IMG/VR virus record: IMGVR_UViG_3300030518_000006
Span: 1-64,000 of that record
Strand: one strand, 5' to 3'
Source of the DNA: a virus
DNA length: 64,000 nt
In this document: piece after piece, positions 5,068 to 63,400 of the stretch
How the letters are laid out: every line of letters begins with the position of its first letter
How positions within the stretch are numbered: the stretch's first letter is position 1
The notes under the pieces: model-generated
Told to the model about the DNA's origin: nothing
The model's database searches: none
What the model saw: only the letters and a program-made list of their open reading frames with translations
Made by a program: the position numbers and the translations under genes

Positions 5068-5261
5068 ACCCCCTGGTGGAATACGTCCAGATGTCGATTG
5101 CCCGCGGGGATCTCGACAACCGGATGCGCGAACTGCAGCAGCAGATCCTGGCCGGATTCGCGAATGGAGAGATCCGGCGCTACGTGATCGACGATGTCCT
5201 GGTCGAGGTCGACACGGGCGCCAGAACCATCCGTCTGCTGCCGGTCAAACGCCTCAGCTGA
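5064..5261 (+). CDS. Small hypothetical protein
   Basis: Coupled start, GC3-rich codons. Confidence 0.65.
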   Translation: MNPLVEYVQMSIARGDLDNRMRELQQQILAGFANGEIRRYVIDDVLVEVDTGARTIRLLPVKRLS

Positions 5262-5356
5262 CCACCCGTCTCTGGCGGTCCTAAGTCAACCGATTTTTGT
5301 CGGCACGCCAAACATACGGTTTTAACCGACCTCCGGTCTACACCCCACTTTTCTGC

Positions 5357-5385
5357 TTGCAGCGACCTGGAACGCTGACTAGGTT
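5357..5385 (+). promoter_or_regulatory. Candidate sigma70 promoter for the polymerase operon
   Basis: TTGCAG-17 nt-TAGGTT with internal CAGCG/CGCTG inverted repeat. Confidence 0.45.
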
Positions 5386-5612
5386 TTGCGCTCTGCCAAT
5401 CGTCAGGCGGAATGCAGTGAGCTGAGCCCAGCCCCTCCTGCAATCTGCATGATGCCGGCGCCAGTCCGCTTCGCCAGCGGATCTCGTTTCAGCAGCCCAT
5501 GTGCTGCGTTCCCCGCCCCGTCTTCCCCGGGGTTTGGTTTCGGCTGGCCCCGAACCCTGGGTGAGCGCGGTACGTCGACTGCTGCAACGGGCTTTCTTCA
5601 GGGAAGGTCAGC

Positions 5613-8600
5613 ATGCCCGTCGACCCGCTCCAACAGGATCTGCCCGGTGGCCGCGTCGCCATCTTTCATCCCGGGGGCAAGGATTTCCCTGATCGAGTGC
5701 GGCTGGAGGTGCGGGATCAAGCGGGGCCGGTGCGCGTTCTCTCGAAGTTCAATCCAAGCTCGAAGACCGCATCACGCGACCTCGAAAACGAGTTCCTGAT
5801 CAACGAGACCCTGGCGCGCGAGATCCTCGCCACCTATTGGACCTGGGCCCACGATGTCCGCGAGCAGGTCGCGAAAGAGGAAGCGGAAGTCCCCACCAAG
5901 GTCCCGCTCCCTGATTTTCCCACCCCCTACTACGGCCTACGCCAGCGCACCAAGCACCAGCGCAAGGACGAGGCCAACTCCTACGACGCGGTCAACTCCG
6001 CGACCGGATTCCTGGCGGTCCTCAAGCGCACCGGGCTGCCCGACGACACGCTGCTCGAATGGGACAAGGACAAGATCGAGTTCTGCTGTGTGCTCGACCT
6101 CGATTTCCATGACCCCGAGGCACCGGCCAAGCCCACCCCCGATGAGCTCGACGAGCTGGGCCGCGAGTTGTCCCCGGCCCCCGAGGCGTGGTGGCTGAGC
6201 CAGGGCGGCGGCCTGAAGGCCCTTTACACCTCGACCCCCAACCGCCTCTTCACCGCCCAGGAATTCGCGACCGGGGCCGCAGCCAAGCTGCTGACGACAT
6301 TCATCGTGATGAAGTGCCACGGCACGATCGAGATCGACACCAAGACCAGGCACCCCGGCGCCAAGCAGAACGGCAAGCAGTGCGGCCGGGTGAATCTGAC
6401 CATTCCCGACGAGAAGTTCGACGCCCTGGCCCGATTCAGCGCCGCCGAGGCCACGGAGGTCGAGGTCACTGATTTCCTTGAGGACCAGGGGCTGACCATC
6501 GGGGAGATGCTCGGCCACGATATGTGCCTGATTGACCCGAAGCACCCGAGCAAGAGCAACCCGGTCTACGTCGGTAAGGACGGCCTCTTTTGCCACAGCT
6601 GTGCTGGGCGCTTTGGTCGCGGGTTCATGTCGTGGGGTTACGTTCGACGCTACTTCGGGCTCGGCAATGCCGGCGACCGCTCCCTCTCCCCGATCGGCGA
6701 GGCGGTCAAGTTCTTCACCCACGTGTCGCATGTTGACTACCTGTTCAAGCAGCTGCTCCCGGTACTCCCGGAGGCCCTTCGCCGCACGCTCTACCGCACT
6801 CTGCTCAAGAGCACCCATCAGCGCGACCCGCGCATCAGCGTGGCGATGGGGGATTTCTTTTTCGTCCGGGGCCTGGGCACCTGGCTCCACGCTGACACTT
6901 TGCTGCCGGTGGGGCGCCCACTCAACAGCACTGACGTCAGCATCTTGCCGTCCTGCCTACGCTTCAACCCGTACGATGCCGAGAAGCCGCTATCGGTCAG
7001 CTCCGCGGCGGTGGCGTCGCACACGAACAATGGACGCATCCACGGCTGGGTACCGATCCAGCCGTACATCTTCGAGCCGATCTTCTTCAAGCACAACGAG
7101 GCCGCGGCAGTGCAGGACGTGGTGCGCTGCTACCCGCGCGTGCGTACCACCAGGGATCGGGTGACCTATACCAACCCGAAGGAGCGGCTTTCCCTCGAGG
7201 AATGCGAGCGCCGGATCGAGGAGTACTTCCCCGGCGTCAACCTGACCTACATCAAGGCGCTGATCATCGCCGCCGGCTGCGCGGAGAGCGGCAAAGGCGC
7301 AATCCCGATGCTGTGGGCGACTGGCGAGACCGGGTCGGCCAAGACCACTACGATCACGATCGTCCAGGAGATGTACGGGGAATCCTACGCCAACCTGTCC
7401 GAGGTCGAGGACGACGACCGGCTGGTGCAGCTCTTCGGCGAGTCCCTCGAATCCACGCGCCTGATCACCTTCGACGACTTCGCCAAGGAGGCCTCGAGCC
7501 ACAAGCGGTTCCACACCTTTCTGATCCGCCTCAACCGGCACGGGCACAGCTACCACAAGCTCTTCGTCGGCAAGCAGACTCCGCCGGTCAACAGCGCGGT
7601 GATCCTCACCGACTGGAGCATTCCACGCTTCTTCGCTGTCGACCCGCAGTTCGGTCGCCGCGTGCACCTGATCACCCTGGAGAGCCGCATCAAGGTGAGC
7701 TGGGAGAAGATCGGGCACTTCGTCGAGGGATGGTGGAAGAAGACCCCCGAGTTGACCGCGGCGGCAAACGGCCTGCACAGCTGGGTCGTCGATGAGTTTT
7801 TCCCGGCCGAGGACGAGGAAACCTTCTCGAACAAGATGGAGCGCCTGGATATCTTCCCCCTGGAGGATGAGGTCGCGGTGGGCGAGGGCCAGGTGGCGAT
7901 GCAGGAACTCATCGTTCAGCTGGTGAATGCCATCGCGACGACACCGCCCTACGACGAAGTGGCGAGCATGCAGCGACGCATCGGGAAGGGAATCCGGCAC
8001 ATCAACTGGCGCAAGGGGTCCGTCGGCACGCTATGCACCACGCTGGTCGATTCCCTTGGCAAGGTCGACCGGGACGAGGAGAAGATCTACAACGTCGAGA
8101 ACCTCAAGCACGTGCTCGACCCGTTCCAGCTGAAGCTGGCAGCCCTGTTCGACGTCCGCTCCGACGTCAGCAGCATCGCCTTCGACCTGAAGGTCTGGGG
8201 TAGCGCAGCCTTCATCCGCTTGGTCGAGGCCGGGAAGAGCTTCCGGGCGAAGGACCGCCGCATCAACGAGGAACTATTCCGCGACTGGCCGCCGAAGCCG
8301 ACCATCGACGTCCCGGCGGTCGTCACCACCGAACCGATGGCCACGCTTCCCGGCCTACCGGCGGCTCCGCCTATCCCGACCGTGGAGGGGGAGGTCGTGT
8401 CGGACGATGTCGTCATCCTCGACCCGTTCGTCGTCTATCTTGACTTCGAGACCCAGAGCGAGTGCAACATCAAGCAATTCGGCAGCACGGTCTATGCTCA
8501 GCACCCGTCGACCAAGGTGATGTGCGCGGCGCTCTCTGTAGCCGGAACCAGGATATTCTGGACGGAGATACCCTATGACCTCAAGCTCCCGGACGGGGTG

Positions 8601-25697: not shown

Positions 25698-25819
25698 GCG
25701 ACCCAGCCACGGCCGGTGATTACCCGACGAGGCGGGTTGCGCTTGACCGGCTTTCCTCGGGGACGCTTGGTCTGGTCGACCGCGGTGGCGTCGGGGGATG
25801 AGAGGGATTTGAGTTTCAT
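25694..25819 (-). CDS. Small basic peptide with KRNP motif (41 aa)
   Basis: Manual translation MKLKSLSSPDATAVDQTKRPRGKPVKRNPPRRVITGRGWVA; AAGG RBS, ATGA coupling to the kinase. Confidence 0.55.
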   Translation of the reverse strand: MKLKSLSSPDATAVDQTKRPRGKPVKRNPPRRVITGRGWVA

Positions 25820-25826
25820 GGCGACC

Positions 25827-27230
25827 TTATGAGCTTTGGTAGGCGCTTTGAGCTTTCACGTGATAGCCTATGTTGTTTTCTAGGATCATCAAAGCGAATT
25901 GTTCGAGGGTGTCGGGTCTGCTCCATCCACGGTAGTAGTCATCGAATTCTTTTGAATACGTGACGCGAACGCGACCCCACTGATCACCGAGTCTGTTGAT
26001 GAAATGATTGAAACCAGGATTCGTCAAAGTCATTTTTCCATCAGTAGCATTCCAATCGCCTTTGGTCAGAGGCAACCACCAGAGCACGACACCTCTTTTC
26101 ATACGGTCGACGTAGAGTCGGCCTTTGGCTACGTCCATCTGCACAGGTTTCTTCGCGGCTAGACGCGCTGCTTTTTTCGCAGCGACTTCGGCGACGAGTG
26201 ATGGATCGGCATACTCGGTGAAGAGCAGACCGGAGATAGCATTATCTTTTATTTTGGAGTCGACACGCCCAAGCTCACGAACGAAGGTAGCATCATGTGT
26301 GCTGAGCACATTGTGCCACCATATACCAGAGCGACGAGATGTCGTCATATCTGCTTTGATCGCTTGAAGCAGAGCCGCTTGTTCCTGTGGCTCGACTTCG
26401 TTTCTGGCGAAGACTTCATCGCGATAGTGGTGGCATATTTCGTGCACGACGACACGCCAGATACTGTGAGCATCGTAGAGTTCAAACAGCTTTTTATTCA
26501 GTGAGATCGTGCGCTTGTTTGTGGTTTTTCCAGTACCAGGGGCATAAGCAAGGCCAAGCGCTGCTTTGCCGCTGTGCAGCATGATTTCAAGGAAAGAAGG
26601 TTTCCATACGGGGTTTCCGGCGCTTCTCCACGTCCAGACAGCAGACCCATCGGCAACACCTTTTGAGCAGATCTGATGGATCTGCTCCATGGTGTAGTGC
26701 CCGACTTTCTTGCCGTACCCTGAATAGGTGATCGGGCCGAAAGGCCCTGCAAGTTTGATGACTGCGTTTTCTGGCGCGGGGGTGTCGTACGCGACGAGTA
26801 ATTGCAGGGCGTTCGGGTCGGACGCAGGGAGCTTTGCTCGCCTGGAAATATCTTTTTTCGCCCACTCAAGGGGAGCGCGATATTCTGAGGTAAGCGATGA
26901 GAGCGAGCGGATTGCAGTATACTTTGAGTCACGAGGAAGGTAATTCCCCGAGAATTTAATACCGTACGAACGCTTTCCTTCATGCACTCCTATTGATATC
27001 GTTTCTGGAGCTATCATGGATCTGACAGCGTATGACCAAACTTTTCCGTTGCTGGTCACGCTGAGGATGCATTTGCTCTTATAGGGCTGGATGTACGACA
27101 CTCGCCCTTCGAACTCATCAAGACTCGCCAGCGACTGCTTGATTAGAGGAGCGTCAGGAGTGGGAATATACCCGAGGAATCCGTGGACGATGCCATCGGT
27201 CCATATATAGGTGCTGCTGCGGCGTTTCAT
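25827..27230 (-). CDS. SprT-like zinc metalloprotease domain protein (low GC)
   Basis: Start MKRRSS; LGLAY...ISLN...VVVHEICHH...HDATF. Confidence 0.75.
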   Translation of the reverse strand: MKRRSSTYIWTDGIVHGFLGYIPTPDAPLIKQSLASLDEFEGRVSYIQPYKSKCILSVTSNGKVWSYAVRSMIAPETISIGVHEGKRSYGIKFSGNYLPRDSKYTAIRSLSSLTSEYRAPLEWAKKDISRRAKLPASDPNALQLLVAYDTPAPENAVIKLAGPFGPITYSGYGKKVGHYTMEQIHQICSKGVADGSAVWTWRSAGNPVWKPSFLEIMLHSGKAALGLAYAPGTGKTTNKRTISLNKKLFELYDAHSIWRVVVHEICHHYRDEVFARNEVEPQEQAALLQAIKADMTTSRRSGIWWHNVLSTHDATFVRELGRVDSKIKDNAISGLLFTEYADPSLVAEVAAKKAARLAAKKPVQMDVAKGRLYVDRMKRGVVLWWLPLTKGDWNATDGKMTLTNPGFNHFINRLGDQWGRVRVTYSKEFDDYYRGWSRPDTLEQFALMILENNIGYHVKAQSAYQSS

Positions 27231-27622
27231 AGGGCACTCAAGAACGCCTTGTCCGTCCACACCCCCGGCTTCAGCAGCGCCTGCAGCCCGGCGGTCTTGA
27301 GCGTGGTGTACATGAGCGGGCCATAGACCGGGTTCAGGCTGTGCACGATGAAATGGGTGCGCTGGAAATGGGCCTTGTTCGTCACGATCCAATCCACCAC
27401 GTCCATCCCGTTGCCGGTGACCGCGGCGTTCAAGGACTGCTGCAGGTCCAGGTCATAGTCGAGGAACACGATCGCATACGTGTAGAGCTTGAGCATGCTG
27501 ATCGCATCGGACGCGGTCGACACGAGGGTCAGGTCGTTGCCGAGGCCGTTGGTCAGGGCCCGCCGGAAGGCGACAAGGCGGTCCTGGTCATCGTCTAGCA
27601 CAAGCAGATTGTACCCGCTCAT
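27227..27622 (-). CDS. Stand-alone receiver domain (cyclic-phosphate-processing REC type)
   Basis: LVLDDD, VFLDYDL, GMDVVDWI, IVHSLNPVYG. Confidence 0.8.
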   Translation of the reverse strand: MSGYNLLVLDDDQDRLVAFRRALTNGLGNDLTLVSTASDAISMLKLYTYAIVFLDYDLDLQQSLNAAVTGNGMDVVDWIVTNKAHFQRTHFIVHSLNPVYGPLMYTTLKTAGLQALLKPGVWTDKAFLSAL

Positions 27623-42879: not shown

Positions 42880-43656
42880 TTAGCCGAAGGTGAGTATGAG
42901 GGTTTCAGCGCCACAAGGGGCTTCGCCGGGAACACTGACGGTGCCGGTGATCACGCCAGCGACGCATGACAGGGCGCCGGTGAGAACCGGGCCATAGGTC
43001 GGTGATCCGGTGTTGCCCCCGGCGATCACTTGGTAGTCAAGCCCATTGAAGGTGACCTGGACATAGGAGTTACCTGCGAGGTTGCCCCAGGTCCAGGTGC
43101 AGGTATCTCCGCCGTCGCTCTGATAGGCTCCACCGAGCCACGCAGTGCTTGGGATCAGACACCCACCGCCGGGACCTGCACCCGAGCCGCTGAGTGCTAC
43201 TGCAGGCTGGGCCACGCCGCAGGTGGTGCACGGGCCTGCTGCGGTCGTGGTGCTCGAGGTGCTCGAGGTGGTGAAGGTGATCGTGCTGGTCGTGGTCGTC
43301 GTAGTCGTGGTCGTGGTCGTGGTCGTGGTACTCGTCGTAGTCGTGGTGGTCGTGGTCGTCGTGGTCGCGCCGCAGGTGGCCGGACAGCAGGGAGTCGGCA
43401 GCGTGGGGAGCGTGAAGCAGACACACCCATTCTGCTGCTGCAGTGAATACTCGGTCGACGTGCAGGTCTCAAGGAAGGGGGCGCAGAGGGTGTTGTCGAC
43501 GCAGGCCGTGTTGGTCGCGTCGAGCACCCAGGTCGAGACGCCTCCCACCAGGCCGCAGGTATAGCGCACCTGCAGGCAGCAGTTGGAGCCGCCGGGCGGT
43601 GTGGGCTCCGGGCAGGGCGCGGTGGTCGAGGTGTTGGGGCAGTTAGGGCAGGGCAT
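42880..43656 (-). CDS. Cys-rich protein with poly-Thr (mucin-like) linker
   Basis: More than 20 Cys; about 40-residue T/S run. Confidence 0.75.
   Translation of the reverse strand: MPCPNCPNTSTTAPCPEPTPPGGSNCCLQVRYTCGLVGGVSTWVLDATNTACVDNTLCAPFLETCTSTEYSLQQQNGCVCFTLPTLPTPCCPATCGATTTTTTTTTTTSTTTTTTTTTTTTTTSTITFTTSSTSSTTTAAGPCTTCGVAQPAVALSGSGAGPGGGCLIPSTAWLGGAYQSDGGDTCTWTWGNLAGNSYVQVTFNGLDYQVIAGGNTGSPTYGPVLTGALSCVAGVITGTVSVPGEAPCGAETLILTFG
43245..43367. repeat. (GTGGTC)n-type low-complexity repeat encoding poly-Thr
   Basis: Direct reading. Confidence 0.85.
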
Positions 43657-44608
43657 CGGTACCATCCCCCAGGGCCCAGTCGTTCAGGGCGCCCATGTCA
43701 GTGGGGCGTGCGCCACCATCGCGGGTATCCATCAGCAGGGCCAGGTACCCTTTCAGACAGGCCTTTCCGCAGCCTCCGAGCGTGTCCGTCGGCCCCTTGG
43801 AGAAGGGGAAGATGCCGAGCACCTTCACATGCAGCGAGAAGACCTCATCGTGGTCGAAGCGCAGATAGGTCGGGGTCGGCCGGTAGTGGCCGCCGAAGAC
43901 ATACTGCTCGGCCGGATCGATCGAGGTGGTCGGGGCGCGCATGTCGGTCCAGCTCGCGTTGATCATCGGCGAGCCGTTCTTGTAGATCGTCACCTGGAAC
44001 TGGTCGAAGGGTACCAGGTCGGAGAATTCATAGCTGACCCCCTGGATGATCAGGCAGCGGTCGGCGGGCACCTTGTAGGAGATGAGCACATAGTCGGTGG
44101 CGTAGTGCGGGAGGCAGAGCTCCCCGCAACGGTTGAAGGTCTTGGACCAGAAGTTCGGGGCCACGAACAACGGGATATGCATCTCCACGGCGATCTGGCG
44201 ATCAGGATCACCCCCGAGCGGCTCCTGTTGATTCGCCCCGACCGCGGTGCCGCCGCTCGGGGTCCAGAGCTTCTTCGGGGTAAACCCGACATCCGGAGCC
44301 CCAGCCCACATCAGCTCATCAATCGGCTTGTCCTGCTCGGGGGTTGCCGAGGGCATCGTCTCGACGTGTGCGAGCTGATGCTTCCAGATCACCGGCAGGA
44401 CATAGGGAACAGTGCTGCCCGGCAGCCGCAGTTGGACGCCGGGCGGGAACCCACGTGGTGCGGTGACCGTGCTGCTGGTGACGATGACTGCCGGGCGATT
44501 GTCCGGCAGGCGAGCGAGCGTGAGCGACTTGATCCCGGGCATCGCGCCGAAATCCCGGCGGAGCATCTGCAGCGCAGCCAGTAGGATTTTTGGCGAGGGT
44601 TCAGACAT
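43643..44608 (-). CDS. Putative single-jelly-roll capsid-associated protein with N-terminal extension
   Basis: VLISYKVPADRCLIIQGV ... IYKNG ... G....PTP.YLRF ... LKGY; same strand pattern as the neighbouring genes. Confidence 0.55.
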   Translation of the reverse strand: MSEPSPKILLAALQMLRRDFGAMPGIKSLTLARLPDNRPAVIVTSSTVTAPRGFPPGVQLRLPGSTVPYVLPVIWKHQLAHVETMPSATPEQDKPIDELMWAGAPDVGFTPKKLWTPSGGTAVGANQQEPLGGDPDRQIAVEMHIPLFVAPNFWSKTFNRCGELCLPHYATDYVLISYKVPADRCLIIQGVSYEFSDLVPFDQFQVTIYKNGSPMINASWTDMRAPTTSIDPAEQYVFGGHYRPTPTYLRFDHDEVFSLHVKVLGIFPFSKGPTDTLGGCGKACLKGYLALLMDTRDGGARPTDMGALNDWALGDGTDALP

Positions 44609-45128
44609 CGGTGATGAACTCGTACTTGTCCTTCTCGGCGACATTCGGGTTGAGATACTGCCAGCCGAAGAGCCCGGCCACCACCATCTGCTGGATGATG
44701 TTGGTGCTCTTCGCCTGGATGATCAGGTTGTCCTTCTGCTCGATCAAGAAGAAGGTTTCGGCCGGCACCACAGGCCAGATGTTCGGGCCGATCTTGTTGA
44801 CGTCCACGCCGGTCGGGATGGTCATGTAGGGTGCGATGGTGCCGTTGAGAATGAAACGCCATTGGATGCCGGCGAGCGTCGCATCACCGACCACCGTGGT
44901 CACATACTTCTCGATGCGCCAGGTCCATCCAGGGATGCCTTGGAGATTGAGGACATTGGTCCAGCCCTGGCTCGAGGACAGCGGTGCGATTGCCGTCTTG
45001 GTCAGGGTGTTGGACCACCATGTCGGATCCGTGTTCGACGGACGGCGGAATGGCAGCGACGACCGGATCAGGGCGTTCTTGAAGGTGGCGAGCGCGAGCT
45101 GTTCGTAGGGGAGCAGCGTCAAAGGCAT
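44601..45128 (-). CDS. Putative single-jelly-roll minor capsid protein
   Basis: WTNVL....PG..WRIEKY ... IQWRFILNG ... P.ETFFLI ... LFGWQY. Confidence 0.55.
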   Translation of the reverse strand: MPLTLLPYEQLALATFKNALIRSSLPFRRPSNTDPTWWSNTLTKTAIAPLSSSQGWTNVLNLQGIPGWTWRIEKYVTTVVGDATLAGIQWRFILNGTIAPYMTIPTGVDVNKIGPNIWPVVPAETFFLIEQKDNLIIQAKSTNIIQQMVVAGLFGWQYLNPNVAEKDKYEFITDV

Positions 45129-45136
45129 GACTGCTC

Positions 45137-45814
45137 CTAGTTCGCGGTGACGGAGGCCTTCGAGCCCTCATCACCGTACCGGAGCTTCCAATCCCATCCA
45201 CGGAACTTCATGGCGATCGTGCTGGCAGCGCCGGCAGTCGTCGCGCGCTGGACCTGGAAATTGACCGTCTGGCCAACCGGGATGATCAGGAACATATCGG
45301 ACGGTTGGGTCATGCTGCCGCGGTGCTCGCCGAACGGCCCGAGATCGAATGGGATTGCACCGTTGAACATGAAACGCCAGAGAATCGACCCATCGTAGGC
45401 GAAGGCGGCATTGGTGACGTCGAAACCGTACTGGGCGAGGCGCCCATACCGTCCTTCTGGGGCGGTATAGGTCAGGACGGTATTCCACGCCCCGGCAGCA
45501 GCGGGCAGTGAGAACGTCGCCGACAGATCGATGTTGTTCGACCACGGCATCGGGGTGCTGTGGGCCGGCAGCGAGGCCGTGATCTGCATGTTGCGCGCGA
45601 TGCGCGCGAGGGCGGTCACCAGGTGATTGGCCCGCGCCTGGTCCTCGGGAGACGGAGGCGGCGCGCCGACCATGCCGGGGCTGTTGTGCTCGATCTTGTC
45701 ACGGAAGTTCTGGACCCCTCCCGAATCCGGGAGGGCCAGGGGCGTGGTCAAATCGCTCTGCTGGCCGAACAGCCGGCCATTGTAGCCGAGACCGTGGTCG
45801 TCATTGCGCGGCAT
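45137..45814 (-). CDS. Putative single-jelly-roll minor capsid protein
   Basis: WNTVLTYTAPEGRYGRL.QYG ... ILWRFMFNG ... GS...PSDMFLII..GQTV ... FRGWDW; GGAGG RBS. Confidence 0.6.
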   Translation of the reverse strand: MPRNDDHGLGYNGRLFGQQSDLTTPLALPDSGGVQNFRDKIEHNSPGMVGAPPPSPEDQARANHLVTALARIARNMQITASLPAHSTPMPWSNNIDLSATFSLPAAAGAWNTVLTYTAPEGRYGRLAQYGFDVTNAAFAYDGSILWRFMFNGAIPFDLGPFGEHRGSMTQPSDMFLIIPVGQTVNFQVQRATTAGAASTIAMKFRGWDWKLRYGDEGSKASVTAN

Positions 45815-45849
45815 GGGGCCTCCTAGGGGTTACGACCGAAGCCGGGACC

Positions 45850-46395
45850 TTATCCCAGCTTGCGGTTGTACACCTTGAAGCCGCCCATGGTGACCCACAC
45901 GTTGTTGTTCGACCCGGAGAGATCCGCCAGGGTGAACGACAGGGTGGTGTTGGCGGGCAGGAGCAACGGCTTGTGCAGCGGGCCCGGCCGCTCCGCGGTG
46001 CCGACCACGGTGTCGGCATTGACCGCGATGTTCTGCAGCTGACGGTCGCTCGCGTCCTGCTGCATGAAGATGGTGTAGGGACCATCGCTCACGCCCCGCA
46101 TCGAGCAGGCGATGAACGCGCTGTCGGCTGAGATGCGGATCTGGTTGAGCGCGGTGCCATTCGCACCGAGTATCCCGTTCGGCGTTCCAGCGGCGCCATT
46201 GCTGGCGGTATTCTGGAAGGCGTAGAAGTACGGGATGACGTTGTCCTGTGGGAAGGCACCGAACACGTCAAAGATGCTTTGACGGACGTTCAGGAGGGCC
46301 TTGACCATCTCCACGATGCCGGGAGGGGCCTTACCAATCTGCTCGAGATGCTCGAGCTTCTTGATATCCTTGGTGTCGATATCGAGCAAACCCAT
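45850..46395 (-). CDS. Putative single-jelly-roll capsid protein
   Basis: PYFY ... QIRISADSAF ... DRQLQN.AV ... G....P..L.KPLLLPANTTLSFTL.DLSG..N.V.VTMGGFK; first gene of the late operon, AAAGGA RBS. Confidence 0.6.
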   Translation of the reverse strand: MGLLDIDTKDIKKLEHLEQIGKAPPGIVEMVKALLNVRQSIFDVFGAFPQDNVIPYFYAFQNTASNGAAGTPNGILGANGTALNQIRISADSAFIACSMRGVSDGPYTIFMQQDASDRQLQNIAVNADTVVGTAERPGPLHKPLLLPANTTLSFTLADLSGSNNNVWVTMGGFKVYNRKLG

Positions 46396-49664: not shown

Positions 49665-50426
49665 ATGCCGAAATACCGCCAGGCGTCCGCGTATTCTCCG
49701 CCCGAGGACCCATTCCCAGTATTGAGGCCCACCATGCCCACCCCCATCCACCCGTGCGATGCACTTACCACACTCGAACCGAAGCAGCAGGGGGCCTTTC
49801 CTGATCCAGTGCGCTTCCCACCGCCGAAGGGCTCGGAGGGTTCCTGCGGCTGCCTCCTGACCGAGTGGCCGAACCCGCTCGATGGAAACCCGCCCTACCA
49901 GAAACTTGAAACGATCTGGCAGCCGCTCTGGGATACCGTCTCGGCCCCAGAAGGCATGAAGGTCATGAACTTCTTCTCCGGCGATCGAGAGGACGACATC
50001 CTCTACGGAGAACGCGACCGCATGGGGTACCAAAAGAAGATGCGCGCCGATAACGGGCGCAGCTTCCCACGTTCCATCGGCGCGATGTTCTGGCCGAAGA
50101 AGTTCACCATGTGGGAGCTCGAGCTGCAGTTCAGTGATCCCAACGGATACGGGGACAGCATCCCCTCGAAGCTCGGCCTGCTCGATACCATCGAAGGCGA
50201 CTTCGCTCGGATCCGGATGCAGATCGGGGAAAAGTGGCATCTCGACCTCCCCTTCGCGTCTTTTTTCAAGGCTAGAGAGGACAACTACCGCGCGGCACTC
50301 TGCACCCCGCTCTTCCTCCCCTCGATACAGAACTTCGGCATCAGCCTGACCTGGCCGCGAGAATCCCGGGCCCGGTGCACTATCCGCTGCGTTCTCAACG
50401 GCTATCTCCACCGCGAAATTCCCTGA
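49665..50426 (+). CDS. Divergent major-capsid-protein-like (single jelly roll) paralog
   Basis: WQPLWDT....FF ... G....PKKF ... QIGEKW.L..P ... PLFLP..QNF.I.L.WP ... I.CVLNG.L.R; recalled SJR-MCP pattern. Confidence 0.55.
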   Translation: MPKYRQASAYSPPEDPFPVLRPTMPTPIHPCDALTTLEPKQQGAFPDPVRFPPPKGSEGSCGCLLTEWPNPLDGNPPYQKLETIWQPLWDTVSAPEGMKVMNFFSGDREDDILYGERDRMGYQKKMRADNGRSFPRSIGAMFWPKKFTMWELELQFSDPNGYGDSIPSKLGLLDTIEGDFARIRMQIGEKWHLDLPFASFFKAREDNYRAALCTPLFLPSIQNFGISLTWPRESRARCTIRCVLNGYLHREIP

Positions 50427-58605: not shown

Positions 58606-59040
58606 ATGATCCGCCGACGCCGCAGCCATCGCCGCTTCCGCCGCAACGCGCGCCCTGGTGAGAACCAGATCCCGACCGTGCGCATCGTCCGCCGGCCGAG
58701 CAAGAACCCCCGCCGCTTCATCCGCCGCAATGTGCCGATCACCCCGGCGCAGGCTGCCGCGATGAAGGCTGTCCTCCGAGCTCACGGCTACCTCAAGACC
58801 AACCCACTCCGCCGTCGCCACAAGCGGCGCAATCCCCGAAAGCACCGCATGGCACGCCATCACCGCAAGGTCCGCCGGAACCCCGCACCCCCGAAGGGCA
58901 AGCGCGCTGGCAGCGTGTTCAAGCGCAAGGGCAAGTGGTTCCGCATCTCACTCAAGAAGGTCCGCAAGGGTCGCCGCGTCGTCCGCCGCCGCGTCACCGT
59001 CAAGACCACCGCCCGCGCCGCGAAGCGCAGCCGCCGCTAA
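58606..59040 (+). CDS. Protamine-like Arg/Lys-rich core protein with (R/K)xNP repeats
   Basis: Extremely basic; SKNP, KTNP, RRNP x2. Confidence 0.75.
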   Translation: MIRRRRSHRRFRRNARPGENQIPTVRIVRRPSKNPRRFIRRNVPITPAQAAAMKAVLRAHGYLKTNPLRRRHKRRNPRKHRMARHHRKVRRNPAPPKGKRAGSVFKRKGKWFRISLKKVRKGRRVVRRRVTVKTTARAAKRSRR

Positions 59041-59074
59041 GCCTGCTCACCCTCACCTGATTCTGGAGACTCCC

Positions 59075-59305
59075 ATGCCCCGTCGCCGCCACAGCCGCTA
59101 CCGCCGGAACCCCGGCAAGCTCCCCGTCAAGGTCACCTTCCGCAAGGGTGGCAAGCACGTGGTGATCTTCCGTCACCACAAGGCCACCGCCGCGACCAAG
59201 GCCAAGCGCCGGGCCGCGGGCAAGCGCCTTGCCAAGATGTGGACCGCCAAGGAGCGGATGGCGAACCTGCGCAAGGCGTGGGCTGCGAACCGCCGCCGTC
59301 GCTGA
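59075..59305 (+). CDS. Small basic core protein with RRNP
   Basis: GGAGA RBS; MPRRRHSRYRRNPGK. Confidence 0.75.
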   Translation: MPRRRHSRYRRNPGKLPVKVTFRKGGKHVVIFRHHKATAATKAKRRAAGKRLAKMWTAKERMANLRKAWAANRRRR

Positions 59306-59378
59306 GTCGACCGTCAGCTGACCCGCAGCCCGGTCCTCCGCATCCTTGCGCGACCGGGCGGCACACCAGGACGAGCAC

Positions 59379-60470
59379 ATGCTCCCGCTCATCATCGGCA
59401 TCGGCGCCGCAGCCCTCCTCCTCGGCCGTAAGGTCGTACGACGGACACGTCGGAATCCGCGGACGTATCGGCGGGTGAGTCGGAGGAATCCGCTAGAGGC
59501 CTATCACTTCTACTTCAGCACCCACCCGTCACTGATCCACGGGAAGCGTATCGGGTGGACCCGTTACGGCATGAGCGCCGAGCAAGTGAAACGGCTTGGC
59601 ATCGCAGCAGCGAAACATGACTACCCGAAGGCCTGTGACTTCGCAGTGGCGAAGATCAAGAAAGGTTTACGGGCCAACCCCCTCCGCCGCGGCTCCTCCC
59701 GTGCCACCATCAGCGGCAACATCCGTAAGCTGATCCATGAAGGGCGCCCGCAGAAGCAGGCCATCGCCATCGCGCTGCGCACCGCTGGTGTCGCACGACG
59801 CAACCCGACCAACTGGGAGCAGCTGTTCGCCCAGGAGATGGCCCGCCAGCGCGCCGCTGGCACTGCAGCGCCCAAGCCGACCGGGTATGCAAGCGTCGCG
59901 ACGATGCCGAACCCCGGGAAAATAGGGAATCGAATCGTCGCGCGTCACATGATCATGACGCAGGGGCGTGATAAATCTCTGCGCGAAGCGATTGATAAGC
60001 AACTCATGTATTCCCCTGGATCCAGGGAGCGTAAGAACTGGGCAGAGATTGCCCGTATCCTCGCGGGCAAGACCAATCCACCCCGCCGCAAGGGCAAGCG
60101 CAAGGTCCGCCGCTCAAAGATCTCGGTGAGTCAGGCTGCGGCGCGGCTGATGCAGTGGCGGTGGCATCACAACCCGGGAGGCAGCGATCTGGTGCCCTGG
60201 ATTGTCGAGACCACCGAGATGCGCGGCTTCTCCCACGGCAAGCCCAACATCCGCACCGAGAAGAGCGCCTTCCGCGGTAAGAGCCACACCGCCAAGGCTC
60301 TCGCTGCTTGGGTGCTGCGCTACAACCAGTCCTTCACCTCGGGCGGGGTCAACAGTCACGCTTCCAAGGCCTTCGGCTACGAGCCCTACGCCTTCAAGGC
60401 CAAGCTGATCAACCAGCGCAATGGGCGAGTCGCCGCGACCTACAGCGCTCCGAAGTTCCAGGTGCTCTGA
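59379..60470 (+). CDS. N-terminally anchored basic polyprotein-like protein segmented by xxNP motifs
   Basis: AGGA RBS; TM MLPLIIGIGAAALLLG; RRNP x3, RANP, MPNP, KTNP, HHNP. Confidence 0.75.
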   Translation: MLPLIIGIGAAALLLGRKVVRRTRRNPRTYRRVSRRNPLEAYHFYFSTHPSLIHGKRIGWTRYGMSAEQVKRLGIAAAKHDYPKACDFAVAKIKKGLRANPLRRGSSRATISGNIRKLIHEGRPQKQAIAIALRTAGVARRNPTNWEQLFAQEMARQRAAGTAAPKPTGYASVATMPNPGKIGNRIVARHMIMTQGRDKSLREAIDKQLMYSPGSRERKNWAEIARILAGKTNPPRRKGKRKVRRSKISVSQAAARLMQWRWHHNPGGSDLVPWIVETTEMRGFSHGKPNIRTEKSAFRGKSHTAKALAAWVLRYNQSFTSGGVNSHASKAFGYEPYAFKAKLINQRNGRVAATYSAPKFQVL

Positions 60471-60473
60471 CCC

Positions 60474-63400
60474 ATGCGCTCCGCCACCCCCTCCCTCGCC
60501 GACGGCGACATCAACGCCGACTACAGCGTCCTGCCGGAGAACGGCAACGACGCGGTCGACGCGACCGTCCAGAAGATGGTCGAGATGGCGGCCGGCAAGT
60601 GGGGCCGCGAGAGTCCCAAGATCCGCGCTGCGGCGATCAACATCGTGCGGGGTCTGGATCCGATCACTGGCGAACGATTCGCGCCTCAGGTCGCCAGCAA
60701 GGACTACTACGGGATGCTCGAGCAGATCCACAACTGGGTCCGCGACAACATCATGTATGTCAAGGACGTAGTGGGTCAGGAAACCCTGAGTTATCCCGAA
60801 GAAACGCTCTTCAACTCCCGTGCAGAGGACTGTGATGGGCAAGTGATTCTGGAGATGGCCCTCCTCGGCTCGATCGGCTTGCAGAGCTATCCCGTCATCG
60901 TCGGGATGTTCCCGGGCCACTACTCACACGTCTACATGTATGCCGAGGTGCCCCCGGGGCGCCATCGCAACGCCGACACCACCTGGGCCGCCGATCCCAT
61001 CATGAAGGACTGGCCGCTTGGCAGGGAGGCCCCGGCTGATAGGGTCAAGGCTAAGAAGGTCTACTCGAACCTCGCAGGATTTAACATGCCACTCAACGGA
61101 TATGCTTCTTCCGACGCGGCGTTCTCTCCCCAGGACGAGCTCGAGGCCACGCAAGTCGGCACCGTGCTCGCCACCCGCCTGACCGACTCCGGGGGTGCTG
61201 GGCAGATCGTCAATGCGAACCGCCTGACCCAGTGGGGCGATGAGCTGGACGACATGTTCAATGCCGAAGCGACCGTCAATCCGATGCAGGCCGCGCCTGC
61301 CAGCCTGCTCTACGCCCGCGGCCCGGTGGTCGCCCGTGCAGCACGCGAGCAGACCTCCTACCTCAGCGAAGCCCCGCTCGGCGGGGGACGCAACCGGCCC
61401 GGGATGCGCCGTGGCCCCCTGATCATCACGGTCAAGGACAAGGCAGTCGGCGATTCGGTCACCAAGCCCAAGGCTCCGACCGTCAACGGCCTGATGGGCC
61501 TGGCAGACTACCTCGGTGAGCTCGCCCCGATCGCCAAGGTGGTCGGCAAGCGCATGAGCGTGAACGGCAAGCGCGACGCGCTCCATGCCACAGCGGCGGC
61601 AGCCCACCTCGCCAAGAACCAGGCCAAGAAGGCGACCAACCGGGTGGTCAAGCTGCAGCGCGACGGGTTCATGCCCGGCTTCGGCGCCGACATGCAGCCG
61701 GACAAGACGCTCGATGTCGCCATGCAGATCGAGAAGCTGGCCCACCAGGTCTCGGCCCAGGCCGATCAGATCGCCCAGCTCGCCGCCGGCAGCAGCCCAC
61801 TCCGCCAGCAGGCCCTGAGTGTCGATCTCGGGGCGATGGACTACATGAACGAGCATGCCGCGGTGTCGGACCTGCTCGACAACATGCAGCTCCCCAACGT
61901 GCCGACCAAGGACATGGCCAAGCTCAAGTCCGTCGCCCTGGTCAACTGCATCCAGGATCCGGACGTCAAGCAGCTCGCCGTCGATCTCGCCCAGACCGAT
62001 CTGCCGACCGCACCTGGTGCACGCGTCAAGACCCGGCTGCCCGAGGGCGCCATCGTGCGTGACCAGATGGGCAAGGTCATCCAGAATGGCGGGGGTGATG
62101 ATAGCCTGGCCGGCCTGGGCGAACTCACCCGCAAGCGCCGCATCAAGCGCGCCCTGGCCGAGTTCAACGAGAGCACCGACACCAGCGCCATCGCCAACGC
62201 CCTGCGCGCCTCGGCGAATGGCCTGGCGGGCTACGCGAATGAACCGGGCCTCGGGCGTTCCCTGAGCCAGGCCATCAGCGGCGTGGCCAAGTCCGTGGTC
62301 GCCAGCATCACGGTCCCCGTCAAAGCTGCGGTCGCGACCGTGGTCGACCCGATCAAGCTCGCCCAGACCGTCGCCACCGGCGGCTCGGTGAAGGCGGCGC
62401 TCACGAGTGACGTCCAGAACGTCACCAACCCGATGAACCAGGCGCTCAAGCAGATCGTCACCAGCACCCAGAAGGCTCCCTCGACCCCGGCGACCCCGGC
62501 GACCCAGTATGAAGACGCCAACGGCAATATCATCAGCGCTGGGTTGTACAACAGCCTGATGTTGAACCCGTCGACCCCTGAGAGTTGCTTCGACGCGAAC
62601 GGCAGCGCCCTGAACACGACCGGCTGCGTCTACGCGCCGGGCACCCCGGGCGCGACCGTGACCCAGACCACCGGCGCGTCGACCCTGTCCCAGTTCCCCG
62701 GCGGGACCTGCTTCAGCGCATCCGGTGCCTCGACCGGTGCGACCGGATGCTTCAGCCCGTCGACCGGTGCGGCCTGCTGGACCTTCACCAGCGCCACGAC
62801 CGCCCCGACCGCGACCAACGCGGCCCCGGACTGCCCGATGGCTCCGGTGTCTGGATACAACCCCCAGGTCATGGGCCCCTATGCCAGCGGCCCGGGCGCT
62901 CAATGCTTCAACGTGACCACGGGTCAGCCGACCGGTGTGCCGGGATGCACGAGCCCCTCGACCGGTGTGGCGTGCTACGCCTGGCAGGGCCCGTCCGCCC
63001 CGCCGGTCGCGACCAATGCCGCGCCTGACTGCGCCGGGGCGACGTACAATCCGTACGCTGCCCAGCAGCCGTACTATCCGCCCGGCGGCGGTGCGTCACC
63101 GTACGACCAGTCCACGCCCGATGGCACCAACTACGACCCGAATACGGGTGAGAGCCTGACCTCGACCCCGGACTACTCCAACCAGGGTCCCCCGGACGAC
63201 AGCGGCTTCGGGCCCGACCAGATGGGCCCGGCGTCCTATGCGGACAACAGTCAGCAGGACGAGAACACCGTGGCGGTCTCGGCCAGCGGTGGCGGCGGGT
63301 TCGACCCCTCGGGCAACTCGGGCATCACCGCCGGCGGCCAGTCTGACAGCGGTGATGATGGCTCGGATGATGGCGGCTCGGATGATGGCGGCTCGGATGA

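Follow-up and report, generated by a model that had tools for sequence, protein, structure and literature searches.

Asn-Pro seams separate the modules of basic late proteins in an uncultured virus and are candidate processing sites

Introduction

What does a short motif signify that recurs at the joints of otherwise unrelated pieces of small basic virus proteins? The question is raised by three consecutive open reading frames (ORFs) in the first 64 kb (64,000 nucleotides, here called the window) of a single 96,773-bp virus record, IMG/VR entry IMGVR_UViG_3300030518_000006, which has a G+C content of 63%. The ORFs encode proteins of 144, 76, and 363 residues that contain four, one, and seven copies of the dipeptide Asn-Pro (NP), mostly with a basic residue two positions before the Asn. 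A preliminary description of the window, made from the sequence alone, had reported these ORFs and counts correctly. It proposed that the motif is a cleavage or packaging tag of a viral polyprotein. Here, we call the NP-marked joints seams and the three genes seam ORFs. The patterns described below support the reading of NP with a basic residue at position -2 as a conserved delimiter between independently evolving modules. We tentatively propose that the three ORFs, above all the longest, encode seam-delimited modular precursors of a late gene block that is probably particle-associated.

Results and discussion

The NP dipeptide is enriched at the protein level

The frequency of the motif was compared with that obtained by shuffling the residues inside each protein (20,000 shuffles). 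The 144-residue protein contains four NP dipeptides against 0.53 expected (p = 4.5e-4), and the seven of the 363-residue protein, against 0.88 expected, were reached in 0 of 20,000 shuffles. The single site of the 76-residue protein is compatible with chance (0.12 expected, p = 0.12). The composition-matched expectation, on which the preliminary description had staked its idea, is thus exceeded in the two longer proteins. With the basic residue included, [RK]xNP occurs three, one, and five times in the 144-, 76-, and 363-residue proteins, compared with 0.21, 0.045, and 0.18 expected. Pro follows 12 of the 26 Asn residues of the three ORFs, as opposed to 71 of 769 (9%) in the remainder of the 96.8-kb genome. 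The codons of the motif vary from site to site (AAC or AAT; CCC, CCG, or CCA; five different Arg codons). Therefore, the signal resides in the protein, and a DNA-level repeat or recombination signal is ruled out by the codon differences at every site.

The enrichment extends to the relatives of the three proteins. Among 85 family proteins of at least 120 residues, NP is the most enriched of all dipeptides (317 against 42 expected, 7.5-fold), whereas SP, TP, and DP occur at 0.83, 1.13, and 0.92 times their expected frequencies. The lack of enrichment of these three dipeptides weakens an explanation by helix N-cap preference. Position -2 is occupied by Arg, Lys, or His in 73% of 263 sites. The seam variants RN-GG and RRN-[V/A/S]-P occur, the latter at one seam of the 144-residue family, so that the Asn is constant and the Pro nearly so. 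Fourteen homologues of the 144-residue protein all retain its seams N34-P35 and N66-P67.

Outside the three ORFs, [RKH]xNP occurs 11 times against 5.5 expected (p = 0.02). The excess is located in the neighboring plus-strand block (4 against 0.9, p = 0.013), and elsewhere in the genome the count does not depart from chance (7 against 4.5, p = 0.16). The preliminary description had extended the tag to enzymes encoded far from the seam ORFs. The sites exist, and that of the GP88-like protein, encoded upstream of the 144-residue protein, is retained as RTNP in a homologue that is 44% identical (relative L104); those of a kinase-like ORF and of a 41-residue peptide belong to the chance-level remainder.

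Seams coincide with module borders

The seven seams divide the 363-residue protein into eight segments that are mutually unrelated, in agreement with the earlier view of them as separate mini-domains. Modules of the seam ORFs are 11–98 residues long and mostly basic. Homologues of the 363-residue protein have the N-terminal helix in common and differ in their sets of modules, and the differences begin and end at NP. Of 20 borders of long insertions and deletions in the alignment of the family (A1), 16 are no more than four residues away from a seam, compared with 19.5% at random. The borders are less clean in the Arg-rich 144-residue family, where 17 of 52 are near a seam and 21.7% would be at random. 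Of the BLAST matches, 58% start no more than three residues from a seam (10.5% would do so at random), a figure dominated by the module of segment 4, because the set was gathered with that module as the query.

Individual rearrangements follow the seams. One homologue of the 363-residue protein lacks the segment 4 module, with the gap running precisely from NP to NP, and another contains an exact tandem copy of a 43-residue unit bounded by KNP. A relative with 98% identity in the flanks has exchanged the entire N-terminal half of the protein. Relatives of the 144-residue protein carry an extra whole module, of the type ending in ...RLAxWRWHHNP, or approximately 100 residues inserted at invariant seams. 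The orthologue of the 76-residue protein in the 109.5-kb relative L103 has an additional N-terminal module with NP on both sides. Bare Arg tails and leaders of just 2–6 residues, delimited by NP, also occur.

Segment 7 is shared more widely in the family than any other module; it is nearly invariant among homologues of the 363-residue protein and is found in other architectures as well as inserted into the 144-residue family. A metagenome scan with the back-translated WRWHHNP pattern returned real matches only in L103, L104, L131, and L159. Most of the matches were due to chance and included one conserved enzyme family with WRWHHNP and several off-frame matches. In L103, the minus-strand region 5205–7151 encodes two consecutive membrane-anchored NP-seamed chains of 249 and 397 residues, the longer of which carries the spacer SNPRRRRKARRAKSRRRNP twice.

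The N-terminal hydrophobic helix of the 363-residue protein, which the preliminary description took for a membrane tether, is conserved in the family, and the N-terminus MLPLILGIGAAALLLGRK heads many family members that are otherwise different. None of the three proteins matches a Pfam family at E ≤ 0.1, and their only match in PHROG is phrog_2423, a family of unknown function. The three ORFs contain neither an HExxH motif nor a peptidase domain. The AlphaFold model of the 363-residue protein is of low confidence. In this model, all seven seams are in coil between predicted helices and strands, and helices begin 3–5 residues past the seam Pro rather than at the Pro. The ORF has an ATG start with the sequence AGGA located 9–12 nucleotides upstream, and clear ribosome sites precede both it and the ORF of the 76-residue protein.

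Modules have stand-alone counterparts that begin at the seam proline

Segment 4 of the 363-residue protein corresponds to phrog_2423, the stand-alone small phage protein to which the preliminary description had pointed. The 52-position profile of phrog_2423 matches residues 101–143 at profile positions 2–44 (E = 1.3e-12). Since the match begins at profile position 2, the module starts exactly at the Pro of RANP. An exhaustive search identified 516 relatives, including dozens of stand-alone proteins of 50–100 residues that align from their own residue 2. Positions P1, L2, G5, and S7 of the module are invariant, as are an Asn and the QAxAIA motif, which are likewise present in the solo members.

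The residue that precedes the module Pro alternates between a start codon and a seam. Among 163 fetched proteins, it is the start Met in 41, Asn in 49, and an internal Met, which we read as the true start, in 13. Nine proteins have another residue, four of them Val, possibly representing GTG starts. In IMG/VR loci, the Pro is preceded by ATG or GTG in 79 of 80 cases and by Asn in one of 80. In some proteins, the module follows a short leader of 4–6 residues that ends in Asn, as in MTKN-P and MKTN-P. An initiator Met before Pro is normally removed. Consequently, the solo protein and a module cut between Asn and Pro would share the same N-terminus. This pattern of a start Met or an Asn in front of an invariant Pro makes the cutting idea directly testable.

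A second module behaves similarly. The C-terminal segment 8 has counterparts in stand-alone proteins of approximately 90 residues, whose M1-G2 align with G267-G268, one residue past P266. A search of the protein atlas with this module gave no match. The idea that a cut at the seam would recreate a natural N-terminus is thus supported for two modules, with a one-residue offset in the second, and these are the modules whose stand-alone homologues begin at or near the seam Pro. Another module, found in the relatives, equals phrog_34889.

Many tailed phages have a solo phrog_2423 gene in the late region, frequently with the gene of the portal or head-morphogenesis protein on one side and that of the scaffold on the other; further copies adjoin the small terminase gene, follow the lysin gene, or lie amid tRNA genes. 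In Acinetobacter phage IME-Ap7 (L002 3025–4377), the module forms the first 40 residues of a DUF2213-containing ORF. In related Acinetobacter phages (Obolenskvirus records) and in Burkholderia phage BcepB1A, the phrog_2423 match is part of ORFs that bear the annotation head maturation protease. These gene positions hint at a role in the head interior. In some Obolenskvirus records, the annotated start is downstream of the module and leaves it unannotated. A microvirus origin of small contigs carrying phrog_2423 was ruled out, as they are fragments of tailed phages with terminase, portal, head-morphogenesis, scaffold, or tail fibre genes.

A transglutaminase-core protein is encoded directly downstream

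The gene that follows the 363-residue ORF encodes a membrane-anchored protein of 1108 residues (Table 1), the N-terminal domain of which had been named in the preliminary description as a candidate protease. This suggestion is borne out to the extent that the domain has a transglutaminase core with a putative Cys-His-Asp triad and conserved synteny with seam proteins. The domain scores 16.5 bits against Pfam Transglut_core, below the cut-off of 23. Nine homologues at 42–53% identity carry PF01841, and the neighbors of the domain according to a protein language model are viral Transglut_core and Peptidase_C93 clusters. A search of the PDB with the domain profile gave no match. The triad is invariant in four homologues and in a set of 13 that extends to 36% identity. 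The low-complexity region that follows is rich in Thr, Pro, and Gly, and then in Asp, Gly, and Ser, and the protein ends in the basic tail KRKRA. The order of basic proteins, membrane-anchored chain, and transglutaminase-core gene is retained in relatives L005, L103, and L104. The SprT-like ORF, another protease candidate of the preliminary description, is not supported: it scores 23.7 bits against a cut-off of 25.6 and is not syntenic with seam proteins. This ORF (25830–27452, minus strand) contains an HEICH motif, lies in a stretch of lower G+C content, and adjoins the kinase-like ORF.

The N-terminal domain shares 40% identity over 82 residues (E = 4.7e-14) with gp34 from SSIP-1 (Salisaeta icosahedral phage 1). 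The gp34 protein is annotated as structural, has a C-terminal membrane anchor, and passes the Pfam cut-off for Transglut_core with 29.6 bits. This homology is the only significant link that was found to any cultured phage. The late genes of SSIP-1 (L220, JN880423) have a modest excess of NP (20 against 12.1 expected, p ~0.02), and its early genes have none. The SSIP-1 structural protein gp41 (25740–26612) starts with MREN-P and contains VREN-P just before its C-terminal membrane anchor.

More distant loci with a transglutaminase core, 18 in number and located on viral contigs of 33–41 kb, contain more NP than the 80 phage loci used as controls (median observed-to-expected ratio 1.64 against 1.26, p = 8e-4), a comparison that is confounded by relatedness. 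Many of these loci carry a different NP-seamed family approximately 4–5 kb downstream of the transglutaminase-core gene. The proteins of this family (L227–L239, for example L228 13095–14342) are 390–540 residues long, start with MSKRRKNAGEGYGYMFHGAF, and contain six or seven NP dipeptides where about one is expected. The family is conserved, has variable inserts between the seams, and belongs to no Pfam family.

Table 1 Positions of the seam ORFs, their parts, and neighboring genes in the window
Feature	Coordinates	Strand	Remarks
GP88-like protein, 597 residues, RRNP at residues 55–58 after an N-terminal leader of ~57 residues	56743–58536	+	Pfam GP88, E = 6e-10
Arg/Lys-rich modular protein, 144 residues, 40% Arg + Lys	58606–59040	+	4 NP
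NP in the 144-residue protein: residues 34–35, 66–67, 76–77, 92–93	58705, 58801, 58831, 58879	+	
Basic protein, 76 residues, starts MP, RRNP at residues 10–13	59075–59305	+	1 NP; own GGAG ribosome site
Membrane-anchored NP-seamed modular protein, 363 residues, candidate polyprotein	59379–60470	+	7 NP, 8 segments
Segment 1: N-terminal hydrophobic helix (MLPLIIGIGAAALLLG) and basic stretch to RRN	59379–59456	+	Read from sequence
Segment 4: phrog_2423 module (PLRRGSS...QAIAIA...AG)	59679–59804	+	phrog_2423, E = 1.3e-12
Segment 7: basic module ending ...RLMQWRWHHN	60078–60173	+	Nearly invariant in alignment A1
Segment 8: C-terminal module, 98 residues	60174–60467	+	Counterpart of ~90-residue stand-alone proteins
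Protein of 1108 residues: N-terminal transglutaminase-core (papain-like) domain, low-complexity region, C-terminal membrane helix	60474–63800	+	Directly downstream of the 363-residue ORF
Putative catalytic triad Cys120, His152, Asp174	60831–60833, 60927–60929, 60993–60995	+	Invariant in 4 and in 13 homologues, to 36% identity
N269-P270, non-basic NP right after the transglutaminase-core domain	61278–61283	+	Retained in L103 (43%) and L104 (40%) homologues
Start of a 291-residue membrane protein ending ...KTNPRKRRR	63803–64000	+	Runs beyond the window; from ORFs of the whole contig

Possible functions of the seam

We favor an explanation in which each module would be a small protein in its own right, concatenated with others through an [R/K/H]-x-Asn-Pro seam. 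The function of the seam would most likely be proteolytic processing after the Asn. The released pieces would start with Pro, as the stand-alone homologues do once their start Met has been removed. The conserved N-terminal helix would keep the precursor at the membrane until cutting, and the Arg-rich spacers and tails would be freed as short basic peptides. One short motif at every joint of unrelated units that also exist as separate genes is a signature of viral polyprotein processing sites. The best candidate for the cutter would be the Cys-His-Asp domain of the protein encoded directly downstream. From the sequence patterns, we infer cleavage, the identity of the protease, membrane topology, location in the virion, and the functions of the modules. 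Cutting of the seams by some mechanism appears to us evenly poised. A dedicated viral or host protease is a plausible agent, proposed with some reserve, and it is unlikely that this agent is the transglutaminase-core protein specifically. The DNA condensation, packaging into the particle, and release that the preliminary description envisaged are equally hypothetical.

Several observations weigh against processing by the neighboring enzyme, or by any protease. Pro at position P1' is rejected by most endopeptidases. The transglutaminase core belongs to the same clan as NlpC/P60, and the domain could equally be a wall-degrading particle entry enzyme or a cross-linker. Its AlphaFold model is poor (predicted local distance difference test score, pLDDT, of 34), as is that of the 363-residue protein (pLDDT 46.5). 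According to the positive-inside rule, the bulk of the enzyme and the bulk of the polyprotein could be located on opposite faces of the membrane. AT-rich proteins with a very different build also have the phrog_2423 module flanked by the seam, so that a single shared protease is not assured; a scan of viral contigs with one such AT-rich seam protein (P0039) gave no match. The co-occurrence of transglutaminase-core loci and NP is confounded by relatedness, and these associations may reflect just the common descent of one virus assemblage. Finally, polyvalent phage proteins, which consist of several unrelated domains, are able to act uncut.

A seam that stays intact could be a hinge, in which an Asx-Pro turn breaks the helices, or a docking motif for the shell, the membrane, or DNA, and the proteins would then function whole as beads on a string. 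The position of all seven seams of the 363-residue protein in predicted coil fits such a role, seams within Arg-rich stretches could bind DNA as they are, and polyvalent phage proteins are often delivered whole (PMC5512222). A cap or a turn should, however, accept Asp, Ser, or Thr in front of Pro, yet none of the corresponding dipeptides is enriched, and the predicted helices do not start at the Pro. The stand-alone homologues, which lack the Asn and start at the Pro, also speak against a hinge or tag, and the shortest leaders and bare Arg tails have no module to hinge. We consider an uncut seam a serious alternative, although the less likely one. Cutting could also proceed in the absence of a protease if the side chain of the Asn attacked its own peptide bond by the succinimide route, triggered by assembly, DNA, or pH. 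The single invariant residue of the seam is Asn, and a Pro after the Asn blocks the competing deamidation by established chemistry; self-cleavage would moreover account for the seam in proteins of very different composition with no need for a shared protease. Uncatalyzed Asn-Pro cleavage, however, takes weeks to months, and the conserved basic residue at -2 resembles a recognition element for a partner. Self-cutters of this kind are known in the reovirus outer-capsid protein (Asn42) and the YscU/FlhB family (PMC3207474), but known Asn lyases need a folded pocket, and the seams are in predicted coil. Pfam searches with the three ORFs gave no match to any known self-cleaving family (MEROPS N1–N11), and we regard self-cleavage as distinctly unlikely.

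The fold of the downstream enzyme is that of transglutaminases, the proposed substrates are Lys-rich, and Lys-Asn isopeptides occur in HK97 capsids and in pilins. The enzyme might use the seam Asn as an acyl donor and join the Lys/Arg-rich proteins into a network of Asn-Lys isopeptide bonds. Transglutaminases use Gln rather than Asn, however, and cross-linking leaves the stand-alone modules that start exactly at the Pro unexplained, which makes this alternative very improbable. The chance that the seam acts during translation is slighter still. R-x-N-P would then slow or interrupt the ribosome, in the manner of an RAGP/RAPP-type arrest or a 2A-like skip, so that modules fold or insert singly. 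RANP loosely resembles RAGP-type arrest motifs, and three NPG sites are present, but the seam ORFs contain no NPGP, the codons at the seams are free to vary, up to seven stalls per protein would be costly, and 2A skipping is not known in bacteria.

Processing after Asn, the explanation we favor, would have implications beyond this virus. We cautiously suggest that basic-x-Asn-Pro may be the maturation code of a broad assemblage of uncultured prokaryotic viruses, possibly including SSIP-1, in which membrane-tethered precursors composed of small cargo proteins and protamine-like peptides would be cut after Asn by a particle-borne transglutaminase-fold cysteine protease or by self-cleavage. All products would then carry Pro at their N-terminus, and the insertion of a further module between two seams would suffice to gain new cargo. 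Should the seams be cut, viruses of bacteria would possess a polyprotein strategy with its own site code, which would enable plug-and-play loading of small proteins and DNA-condensing peptides into the particle. Asn at P1 and Pro at P1' would be a possible new specificity for a transglutaminase-fold protease or an Asn lyase. Splitting at the seams would become an annotation rule for hundreds of hypothetical modular viral proteins and a function-agnostic route to virion cargo. Because SSIP-1 is in culture, encodes a homologous enzyme, and has some NP sites, it provides a test system for the seam idea.

Virus genome and setting of the seam ORFs

The 96,773-bp record is 100% complete according to CheckV, and a search for end repeats found none. 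The genome encodes a family-A DNA polymerase, approximately 30% identical to phage polymerases, an SNF2-like helicase, a DnaB-like helicase, and a serine recombinase. PHROG and Pfam searches of the contig identified no terminase, portal, or capsid protein of the HK97 type or of the nucleocytoplasmic large DNA virus (NCLDV) type. The profile of the FtsK-type ATPase had no match on the contig, and a search for Walker-A ATPases found none besides the helicase at 82726–84330. A search of 185,579 bacterial and archaeal genomes for a prophage or host assignment returned no relative. No cultured relatives were found for a putative capsid-like protein or for the GP88-like protein, and the protein P0024 had no phage match. 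Candidate capsid proteins are encoded at 49665–50426 and, as four paralogues, at 43643–46395.

The seam ORFs are part of a rightward block in which many proteins have a membrane helix and then a basic tail at their C-terminus. A C-terminal membrane helix is present in at least nine late proteins of the contig. At the end of the window begins the gene of the 291-residue membrane protein, whose NP and Arg/Lys tail are retained in relative L005. The next gene is a tandem paralogue ending in ...ATNPRRRRHRR, and the pair reaches position 65380 of the contig (L003 1–1380). The two paralogues have their first ~40 residues in common, including ...TGSDNPFE.... A tailless membrane virus, as put forward by the earlier reader, is one possibility for the virion. 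In the comparison with SSIP-1, which represents tailless phages with an internal membrane, gp34 was the only protein significantly shared.

Comparison with known systems

No paper describing Asn-Pro seams in phage proteins turned up in a literature search. The closest described concept is that of the polyvalent proteins found in phages and conjugative elements (Iyer, Burroughs, Anand, de Souza, and Aravind 2017, PMC5512222). Like the seam ORFs, polyvalent proteins combine in one viral polypeptide unrelated domains that also occur solo and are shuffled among relatives, and packaging of the chains followed by their processing into units has been proposed (PMC5512222). The defining presence of at least two unrelated domains that also exist solo or recombined is seen here in the eight segments, two of which have solo counterparts. 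Polyvalent proteins are, however, large and enzyme-rich, their processing is attributed to a zincin-like peptidase inside the chain, and no junction code is described for them (PMC5512222). The seam ORFs consist of tiny modules, have no embedded peptidase, as the candidate enzyme is encoded by a separate neighboring gene, and display basic-x-Asn-Pro at every joint. Pfam and PHROG searches of the seam ORFs revealed none of the recognized conflict or effector domains (methylase, ART, ArdC, LPD).

The same short motif at every junction between units, a feature by which viral polyproteins are recognized, is present in the seam ORFs. In adenovirus and in the prohead protease systems of T4 (gp21) and phiKZ/SPN3US, basic core or internal proteins and other particle proteins share a short motif, the protease is borne by the particle, and propeptides and small peptides are released. 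The motif of the adenovirus protease is (M/I/L)XGX-G, cut in core proteins such as VII and X. The idea shared with these maturation systems is that of one short motif on basic particle proteins. The seam ORFs differ from them in the Asn-Pro motif, in the fold of the candidate enzyme, and in the multi-module membrane-anchored candidate precursors.

Both YscU/FlhB and the reovirus outer-capsid protein are cut at an Asn-Pro bond. They represent families N6 and N7 of the asparagine peptide lyases, in which the scissile residue is Asn (Asn42 in the reovirus protein; PMC3207474). The scissile Asn and the presence of viral particle proteins among the members are shared with the processing proposed for the seams. 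The lyases have one site per protein in a folded domain, whereas the sites of the seam ORFs are numerous, are located in predicted coil, and have a basic residue at -2, and Pfam searches showed no sequence relation between the two.

For the candidate enzyme, the closest precedent is LapG (family C93, Peptidase_C93). This transglutaminase-like cysteine protease acts in the periplasm, where it performs a single specific processing cut, at Ala-Ala. LapG, gp34 of SSIP-1, and the 1108-residue protein's N-terminal domain have the Cys-His-Asp transglutaminase-core fold in common. The small phage proteins of the phrog_2423 or DUF6496-like type, which also occur alone, are represented here by a module of a longer chain, with an NP seam on either side.

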